Sequence record: PV018827
DNA: 64,000 nucleotides
Reading direction: 5' to 3' (one strand)
From: Escherichia phage KM01
Each line of letters starts with the position of its first letter. Within the stretch, counting starts at the first letter, position 1. This document shows, one piece after another, positions 48,697 to 50,010 of this stretch. The notes below the pieces were generated by a model. It made no database searches, was not told the DNA's origin, and saw only the letters and a list, made by a program, of their open reading frames with translations. The translations under genes were made by a program, and so were the position numbers.

Positions 48697-50010
48697 TTAG
48701 TTATTTTCGTCTATTTCAAAAGAGATTCCACGACCCGCTTCATCGGCAAACCGAACTGTACGGGTTTGAGGTTCTAATACTTCAGGGTTGTTGGCAACAA
48801 ATTGATCAGCGAGACTATCTCCCAAATCCTGTTCCATATCTTCATCAGCCCACACAGCCCTAACAGGTGCGTTGATATCACCAACAGCGAAACCCTGACC
48901 AGAGAACTGACGTGCGCTAACAGTTAAGCCGTTTGGTCGACCACGAGAGGGTCTAGCCATCCATCGCTCCATAGAATCACTTGTAATACCAAGAGCTTCT
49001 TCAAAAGATGTTCTACGAGTAGGGCTTTCTCTTCGTGACTCTTGTGCTCGACGCATTGCAGGGGCTACAAACACCCCTTCAATTGCATTGTGTCGGTTAG
49101 GTTCCTCTTCTCGACCAAGCAGATCACCACCCGTGTTAGTCGTTAAATTTGTCAACCCCTCAGACCAATACGCATGAATCTGACCAGAACCGTGAAGACT
49201 AGACATAATCTGAATCTCTTCATAAGGGATTCCAAAGAATCGACTCATGTCTCGGTTAACACAATATAGAGCACTTGTTGTATCTTCAATAAGAGAAACC
49301 TGACCTAATCCATTGACTAGATGACTAACTGGCTGAGGTGTGGGAAGATATCGAGTTTGGGCCATGTATTGATGCGCAACTGCTGGAGAGGAAAATCTCA
49401 ACACTTGTGAGTTAGGCCACTTCTTGTGAACATACCTGATTTCACGACTAGAGACAACCACTGGACAAGGGGAAGTCATAGCCAAATATCCGTGAGAAGT
49501 CATGAATAAGTTGTCAAGAGTCATCGCACCACGGCACATCATAGGAAAATTATCCAATACCTCTTCAATAGAAGTAGGATAATTAAACATGAATTGGATA
49601 CGAACCCCATTCCACTGAAACTCAATAATATCAGTGAATGTTAATTGAGAACCCCCAGCATAGGATTCGTTTGTAGCTTCAGCAAGAAGTGATGCATATT
49701 CAATATCTTGTGACTCTAGCCATTCCTTCACATTACTTTCAATCTCCCGTCCAAGCTCTTGCCAACGATCAGTTGGGATGAAAGTGTTTTGAGTTCTTGG
49801 TGTTTGTCCTCTGACAATAAAGATATCAATGTCATGTGGAGCTATGTTATTAAGGACAGCATCACGAACAGCCCCACCAGTAATGATGGGACAGATACCA
49901 TCTGGAATCAAGTTGTTGTTAATCAACTGTTCAATGAAGTGACGACCAACAGTGATATCAGGTTGTTGAGCAACCTTATCTTCAATTTGGTTAATCGGGA
50001 TAACAATCAT
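48697..50010 (-). CDS. Pol-beta-superfamily nucleotidyltransferase (CCA-adding-enzyme-like head)
   Basis: ITGGAVRDAVLNNIAPHDIDIFIV matches the GGxVRD...DxD head motif of CCA/poly(A) nucleotidyltransferases; start taken at internal ATG just after exonuclease stop. Confidence 0.5.
   Translation of the reverse strand: MIVIPINQIEDKVAQQPDITVGRHFIEQLINNNLIPDGICPIITGGAVRDAVLNNIAPHDIDIFIVRGQTPRTQNTFIPTDRWQELGREIESNVKEWLESQDIEYASLLAEATNESYAGGSQLTFTDIIEFQWNGVRIQFMFNYPTSIEEVLDNFPMMCRGAMTLDNLFMTSHGYLAMTSPCPVVVSSREIRYVHKKWPNSQVLRFSSPAVAHQYMAQTRYLPTPQPVSHLVNGLGQVSLIEDTTSALYCVNRDMSRFFGIPYEEIQIMSSLHGSGQIHAYWSEGLTNLTTNTGGDLLGREEEPNRHNAIEGVFVAPAMRRAQESRRESPTRRTSFEEALGITSDSMERWMARPSRGRPNGLTVSARQFSGQGFAVGDINAPVRAVWADEDMEQDLGDSLADQFVANNPEVLEPQTRTVRFADEAGRGISFEIDENN

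Follow-up and report, generated by a model that had tools for sequence, protein, structure and literature searches.

The gene at positions 48697-50010 (minus strand) of a 64,000-nucleotide stretch of Escherichia phage KM01 DNA (sequence record PV018827; the whole stretch is hereafter the window) encodes a protein with the fold of class II nucleotidyltransferases, which is not, however, a canonical CCA-adding enzyme, since it fails most of the features that define these enzymes. It is best described, in our reading, as a putative stand-alone and highly diverged class II module of the pol-beta superfamily, corresponding roughly to the head and neck of a CCA-adding enzyme, after which a mostly disordered, apparently poorly constrained Arg/Glu-rich extension would follow. 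As the motif that binds nucleoside triphosphates (NTPs) and metal, i.e. motif A (GGxxRD...DxD), is kept, the protein would be expected to bind NTPs and to transfer nucleotides, without a template, to a 3'-OH, most probably that of RNA. The elements that seem to have been lost are the ribose check (RRD), the C/A template (EDxxR) and the ruler for tRNA (body and tail domains), so that building of CCA specifically on tRNA would not be expected. The reading we tentatively favour, while giving it somewhat less than an even chance, is that of an active accessory enzyme carrying out untemplated nucleotide addition to RNA 3' ends, with CCA/tRNA specificity lost. Such an enzyme would be co-transcribed with replication and nucleotide-metabolism genes; it evolves at a rate far above that of its neighbours, as is typical of host-interaction or counter-defence proteins. 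The window belongs to a Kuravirus (phiEco32/SU10-like), and over the 12 kilobases (kb) around the gene it shares 97.5% identity with Escherichia phage vB_EcoP_SU10 (hereafter SU10), a Kuravirus of the Gordonclarkvirinae. The features of the gene and of its product are as follows.

48697..50010, minus strand: complete nucleotidyltransferase open reading frame (ORF), 437 amino acids plus stop, ATG at 50010, stop at 48697-48699, matching PHROG 12715.
49306..50010, minus strand: confidently folded alpha/beta nucleotidyltransferase domain, residues 1-235, class II head and part of the neck.
49819..49878, minus strand: motif A, GGAVRD...DIDIF (GGAVRDAVLNNIAPHDIDIF), residues 45-64, the sole segment aligning to class II profiles.
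49594..49596, minus strand: Gln139, invariant in 26 of 26 family members, putative third-carboxylate position.
49543..49548, minus strand: Phe155-Pro156, the Pro invariant, aligned to 'FD' of the 'FDCxxN' motif of PHROG 1614.
49420..49446, minus strand: family signature R-[DE]-x-x-Y-x-x-[KR]-K, here REIRYVHKK, residues 189-197, on a helix (188-197) in both models.
48700..49305, minus strand: C-terminal region, residues 236-437, with two short helices, YWSEGL (residues 281-286), and then the Arg/Glu-rich extension predicted to be disordered.

The assignment to class II is carried by the fold. Residues 1-235 of the window protein were modelled by AlphaFold2 with a predicted local distance difference test score (pLDDT) of about 80-94, and in a Foldseek search of the PDB the top 33 matches were all class II enzymes, the 200-235 aligned columns corresponding to head and neck; the nearest solved structures by fold are CCA-, CC- and A-adding enzymes. 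The model of a distant member of the family, the 278-residue P0070, is folded to about residue 265 (pLDDT 86.5, predicted template modelling score 0.84), and its secondary-structure elements match in order those of the window protein. Of the features of the pol-beta nucleotidyltransferase superfamily, the alpha/beta fold and the hG[GS] and [DE]x[DE] motifs are present. To a stand-alone 'CCA-adding enzyme head domain' of known structure (NP_344798.1, PDB 2la3), a non-phage protein with no detected sequence relationship to the window protein, the structural similarity is much lower than to the full-length enzymes of class II.

At the sequence level the kinship is confined to motif A. With the Pfam model PolyA_pol (PF01743) the window protein scores 18.8 bits, under the cut-off of 23, and sub-threshold matches are found in 18 of the 26 family members aligned (best expectation value, E, 2.5e-4), the alignment being of sequences about 25% identical overall; NCBIfam gave no match to the window protein at E up to 1. 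The best match of the family profile among PDB sequences is a CCA-adding enzyme (E 0.0019), in the motif A region only, and a single-sequence search of the PDB with the window protein returned no nucleotidyltransferase. Profile comparison by hhalign with E. coli Cca or with a four-sequence class II profile (for the latter, probability 88%, E 2.7e-6) aligned just 23-24 columns, again those of motif A, and word-indexed homologue searches recovered close relatives or family members only. When profile alignments to class II were forced or made global, the registers past motif A were inconsistent, and motifs C-E were not placed from them. The first-pass annotation, made from the sequence of the window, had pointed to a GGAVRD...DIDIF head motif, which is real (residues 45-64) and invariant across the family. 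It had also proposed a CCA-adding-like enzyme that may repair tRNAs or modify other RNAs, and CCA addition or tRNA repair is not supported, class II profiles aligning at motif A only. Compared with class II CCA-adding enzymes, the window protein has motif A (GGxVRD...DxD) and lacks RRD, EDxxR, the helical body and tail domains and the HD domain, while carrying a long disordered C-terminal extension. Neither RRD (motif B) nor EDxxR (motif D) occurs in its sequence, and the profile alignments never extend as far as the latter. As the D and R of EDxxR were found irreplaceable for CCA repair in selection experiments with the human CCA-adding enzyme (PMC11784652), a family devoid of them is without one of the hallmarks of CCA addition.

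Invariant in all 26 members are G45, G46, R49, D50, D60, D62, F64, Y117, I128, Q139, P156, Y193 and K197, and an acidic residue, Asp or Glu, is found at position 190 throughout. In the pol-beta superfamily three acidic residues bind two metals, the third of them being found on a later beta-strand (PMC11646218). When a profile of four PHROG 1614 proteins (see below) was aligned to the family by hhalign (92% probability, 111 columns), Q139 fell opposite the Asp of a 'DVL/DIL' strand and F155-P156 opposite the 'FD' of 'FDCxxN', a motif that aligns to the class II 'RRDxTxN' in a relaxed, low-confidence alignment. On these alignments, Q139 would occupy the third-carboxylate position, which we take to correspond to Glu79 of the Bacillus enzyme, and the Asp of motif B would have been replaced by Pro (P156). 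As to other acidic residues, E130, on the strand next to that of Q139, is acidic in only 17 of the 26 members, and position 190, always acidic, is on a helix. The only element resembling EDxxR is the R-[DE]-x-x-Y segment, a tentative visual match in which an invariant Tyr replaces the Arg. Q139, P156 and R-[DE]-x-x-Y-x-x-K-K make up a distinctive invariant signature, which is newly described here.

PHROG 1614 comprises stand-alone nucleotidyltransferases of 170-215 residues from Autographiviridae, which, like the members of the window family, are head/neck-sized podophage proteins. The window protein matches it by hmmscan (E 1.6e-7), and Foldseek against viral models retrieved Autographiviridae nucleotidyltransferases from Providencia, Aeromonas, Vibrio and Pectobacterium phages (E 2e-7 to 4e-4); the protein of Aeromonas phage phiAS7 belongs to PHROG 1614 (E 2e-37) and has homologues in 177 phage records. 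Genes of this type are found 0-2 genes from that of DNA polymerase in phiAS7, Klebsiella K59PH2, Vibrio OWB and Pectobacterium PP1, and Evseev et al. (2020) reported that Studiervirinae share the polymerase-adjacent order, the product being labelled, without experiments, a 'putative tRNA nucleotidyltransferase' (PMC7693777). No experimental characterization of either PHROG 1614 or the Gordonclarkvirinae family turned up in the papers searched. The window family is a remote homologue of PHROG 1614, and its kinship with these polymerase-adjacent nucleotidyltransferases is newly described here. The two differ in that PHROG 1614 keeps the Asp on the third-carboxylate strand and the Asp/Asn of 'FDCxxN', where the Gordonclarkvirinae family has Gln and Pro, and in that only the latter has a variable C-terminal extension of 60-260 residues.

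In the AlphaFold2 model of the window protein, residues 240-437 have pLDDT values <50, and about 150-200 C-terminal residues are predicted to be disordered. The folded core may nevertheless extend to about residue 290, as judged from the model of the shorter homologue, in which the conserved aromatic motif YWSEGL (residues 281-286) and the two short helices are folded. The body of about 350 residues that had been proposed to follow motif A thus shrinks to a domain folded with confidence over residues 1-235, and perhaps to about 290, the rest being predicted to be disordered. The Arg/Glu-rich tail of the same proposal is borne out, the last 137 residues being 11.7% Arg and 11.7% Glu. Tail length differs even among close relatives, and the ratio of non-synonymous to synonymous divergence (dN/dS) of the tail is 0.26-0.54; a segment of 16-19 residues (after residue 395, in the 48700-48825 region) is missing from the window protein, whereas 35 of 43 close homologues, with lengths of 453-456 residues, have it. 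Helical body and tail domains, which bind the tRNA elbow, are absent: the members of 274-300 residues are too short to hold them, and the structural alignments do not exceed 235 columns. A role of the tail as a tether docking on the replisome through short linear motifs was also considered and was downgraded, since the region of the aromatic motif is folded in the model of the short homologue, not all of the family has the acidic C-terminus, and the rate of evolution of the protein is far above that of the replisome genes.

The gene is the third of a block of four, the other members of which are the following.

50563..52353, minus strand: primase/helicase, first gene of the block primase/helicase - exonuclease - nucleotidyltransferase - dcd.
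50012..50569, minus strand: DNA polymerase 3'-5' exonuclease subunit, DnaQ-type, 185 amino acids (PF01612).
48154..48687, minus strand: deoxycytidine triphosphate (dCTP) deaminase, Dcd (PF22769, E 4e-34).

The exonuclease ORF ends with a TAA at 50012-50014, a single nucleotide before the ATG of the nucleotidyltransferase, in keeping with the abutment of the two genes that had been pointed out in the first-pass annotation, and the dcd ATG lies 9 nucleotides past the nucleotidyltransferase stop. The order primase/helicase, exonuclease subunit, nucleotidyltransferase, dCTP deaminase is kept in all 10 loci examined, among which are members only 25-30% identical, and in every one of them the setting is Gordonclarkvirinae-like phage DNA. 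No promoter motif of the phage sigma factor (gp36-type) is found at 43-56 kb of the window, and a strong terminator-like hairpin (46544-46572, minus strand; 11-bp stem with 7 G-C pairs) directly follows a ferritin/Dps-like gene; the transcription unit of the nucleotidyltransferase gene likely ends there, and the gene is therefore probably part of a long leftward unit with replication and nucleotide-metabolism genes. In the whole window there are 5 copies of the phiEco32 gp36-sigma promoter consensus TAATGTATA, where 0.58 would be expected, at 8946, 25522 and 36316 on the plus strand and at 36244 and 42968 on the minus strand, the sites at 36244 and 36316 forming a divergent pair. The family A DNA polymerase is split, the 185-residue 3'-5' exonuclease (50012-50569) being separate from the polymerase subunit (SU10 gp051), whose gene is about 9 kb downstream and more than 20 genes away from that of the exonuclease.

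Within this conserved block the nucleotidyltransferase stands out for its rate of evolution. Across genera, in the comparison of the window with ECBP2 or KBNP1711, identity is 94% for primase/helicase, 95% for Dcd and 77-84% for the exonuclease, as opposed to only 37-39% for the nucleotidyltransferase domain, with a non-synonymous divergence (dN) of about 0.65 against 0.02-0.04 for primase/helicase and Dcd; the nucleotidyltransferase evolves about 15-30 times faster than its neighbours. The dN/dS of the domain is about 0.11, so that it is under purifying selection, while being much less constrained than the neighbours. Synonymous divergence (dS) from phiEco32 is 0.56 in the nucleotidyltransferase domain, compared with 0.075 in primase/helicase, 0.17 in dcd and 0.28 in the exonuclease gene, and the excess over primase/helicase and dcd points to a fixed locus at which old alleles have been exchanged. 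The pattern weakens the case for a tightly integrated replisome subunit, and an accessory, host-facing enzyme fits it better. In a Kuravirus contig (L014, IMG/VR UViG_3300045988_017452), Dcd (4333-4860) is only 58% identical to that of the window beside exonuclease and primase/helicase genes that are 98-99% identical, indicating local mosaic replacement of dcd.

That the ORF is real, and not a chance one, follows from its presence in 97 phage records, from the match to PHROG 12715 over residues 1-437 (E 7.3e-245) and from the detection by mass spectrometry of one peptide of SU10 gp074 (PMC4281155). The window protein is the orthologue of SU10 gp074 and of phiEco32 gp73, a protein annotated as hypothetical to which it is 88% identical, and it is 99.8% identical to the 'nucleotidyltransferase' of Escherichia phage ev_rybdy3. 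The 97 records carrying the gene compare with 99 that match the surrounding 12 kb; the gene is retained in essentially all Gordonclarkvirinae. An exhaustive phmmer search of 1.84 billion cluster representatives returned only 31 proteins at E <1e-3, with no canonical CCA enzyme among them, and IMG/VR held only two further contigs with the gene. The part common to the 31 proteins is limited to the first ~210 residues, lengths ranging from 274 to 482 residues if a few shorter entries, probably fragments, are set aside. Both the gene and the label 'nucleotidyltransferase' are already in public annotation, and no functional test of the protein is reported in the papers searched; what is new here is the recognition that most of the traits defining CCA-adding enzymes are missing and that the gene encodes a minimal class II-type catalytic module whose active-site signature is altered, a module restricted to a single phage lineage and evolving fast between conserved replication genes. 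The matter is of some interest as the gene is near-universal, and uncharacterized, in a common group of E. coli phages (Kuravirus and relatives) that feature in therapy studies and in the BASEL collection.

Untemplated addition to RNA 3' ends by an active accessory enzyme is supported by the invariance of G45, G46, R49, D50, D60 and D62 in the 26 sequences together with the domain dN/dS of about 0.11. Several points weigh against it. Catalytic activity is a prediction from sequence, and, given the invariant Gln at the expected third metal-binding carboxylate and the invariant Pro at the position of the motif B Asp, catalysis may be altered or weak. The proximity to polymerase genes of both the family and PHROG 1614, in unrelated podophages, might mean that the substrate is DNA and not RNA. 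Furthermore, the final 53 residues of the window protein are acidic (net charge -11), which disfavours non-specific RNA binding. As to a role in conflict with the host, the high divergence may result in part from recombination between old alleles, and positive selection is not apparent from the gross dN/dS.

An enzyme directed at DNA or using deoxynucleoside triphosphates (dNTPs), and linked to replication, is in our view unlikely; it might extend primers or the 3' ends of DNA by untemplated addition of deoxynucleotides, or have a part in modifying nucleotides or DNA, possibly as a means to evade restriction-modification (RM). Motif B is the ribose-sensing motif, and on this function rests the argument that, with its loss, dNTPs may be accepted. 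In every member examined the gene is packed between those of the polymerase exonuclease subunit (1-nucleotide gap) and of dCTP deaminase, and the PHROG 1614 relatives are similarly placed, 0-2 genes from DNA polymerase, in the four Autographiviridae genomes named above and in Studiervirinae (PMC7693777). Gordonclarkvirinae are, moreover, reported to be strikingly RM-resistant, and Humolli et al. speculated that Dcd and the nucleotidyltransferase mark DNA modification (PMC11990801). The 15 EcoRI and 32 EcoRV sites of the window are near expectation, so that avoidance of sites does not explain the resistance. The same idea has to face the fact that, to our knowledge, all characterized class II enzymes act on RNA, and that a core partner of the replisome would be expected to be as conserved as its neighbours, rather than to evolve 15-30 times faster. 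In addition, CCWGG (Dcm/EcoRII) occurs at only 3 sites (5912, 40351 and 43779) against 87.7 +/- 9.1 expected from dinucleotide shuffles; such near-total avoidance would be pointless if cytosines were masked, which suggests that they are not protected by modification. The presence of both ThyX and Dcd indicates ordinary synthesis of deoxythymidine triphosphate, and ThyX makes DNA containing deoxyuridine, of the kind known from PBS1, unlikely. RM resistance in vivo without modification has a precedent in T5. Finally, the termini of phiEco32 were mapped by restriction profiling, so its DNA is cleavable in vitro (PMC9965538). Among other recognition sequences in the window, PstI has no site and BamHI one, and GATC is found at about half of expectation.

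A genuine tRNA nucleotidyltransferase, which would wholly or partly rebuild the CCA end of tRNAs that host nucleases have damaged in the course of infection, is quite improbable. The nearest solved structures and the best PDB sequence match of the family profile (E 0.0019) are indeed enzymes of this type, the tail has an Arg-rich middle that could serve for RNA contacts, and public records, as well as Evseev et al., label related phage proteins putative tRNA nucleotidyltransferases (PMC7693777). Besides the absence of RRD, EDxxR and the body and tail domains, however, nothing in the genomic context specifically points to tRNA repair, as had been suggested by the first-pass annotation: ARAGORN found no tRNA gene in the 64-kb window, and SU10 has a single one, tRNA-Arg(UCU), at 66656-66731 (L019 4757-4832, minus strand), in the early region beyond the part covered by the window, which ends in an encoded 3' CCA. 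Kuraviruses carry 0-1 tRNAs (PMC6563267). With so few tRNAs, and CCA encoded in that of SU10, CCA addition for maturation is unnecessary and only a role in repair would remain, which is already supplied by the host's own Cca. The database label 'CCA-adding enzyme domain' overstates what can be inferred.

Also improbable is that the pol-beta fold has been re-tooled or weakened to a non-polymerase function, either nucleotidylating a protein or small molecule or serving as a nucleotide-binding factor in host takeover or anti-defence. The invariant Gln in place of the third acidic residue of the relatives and the invariant Pro at the motif B Asp would agree with it, as would the family's own invariant residues (Y117, Q139, P156, Y193 and K197), not found in class II enzymes, and the fast, mosaic evolution typical of conflict genes. 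The strict retention of GG, R49, D50 and DxD argues instead for ordinary NTP-metal chemistry, and the PADLOC models of known defence and counter-defence systems gave no match to the window protein at E up to 1. We know of no characterized class II-type enzyme that modifies proteins or small molecules.

Least probable of all, we would regard as a long shot a re-tooled class II enzyme, with Gln for the third carboxylate, no ribose-sensing motif B and an R-[DE]-x-x-Y-x-x-K-K element of its own, that has moved off tRNA to dNTPs, or to DNA ends or nucleotides near the replisome, and there aids resistance to type I, II and III restriction, the numbers of EcoRI and EcoRV sites being normal; if true, a role linked to DNA would extend to the small nucleotidyltransferases found beside the polymerase in many phages of the T7-like and phiKMV-like groups. 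The identity of the substrate would tell what a class II core can do without tRNA-binding domains, and would test any part of the gene in the restriction resistance of Gordonclarkvirinae.

Two other groups of genes on the minus strand deserve mention. Downstream of dcd, at 47538-48153, three small paralogous genes are found in tandem (65-69 residues; SU10 has four), the products of which have in common W4, a TR..AR..K core and a C-terminal Tyr, with no Pfam match. Upstream of the replication genes, at 52573-62000, homology to SU10 gp078-gp089 reveals a cluster of genes for gamma-glutamyl cyclotransferase, ATP-grasp ('RimK-like'), class II glutamine amidotransferase, amidoligase and COOH-NH2 ligase, which is retained also in two distant contigs (L004 and L006) and suggests the synthesis of a peptide or of an amide-linked metabolite or tag.

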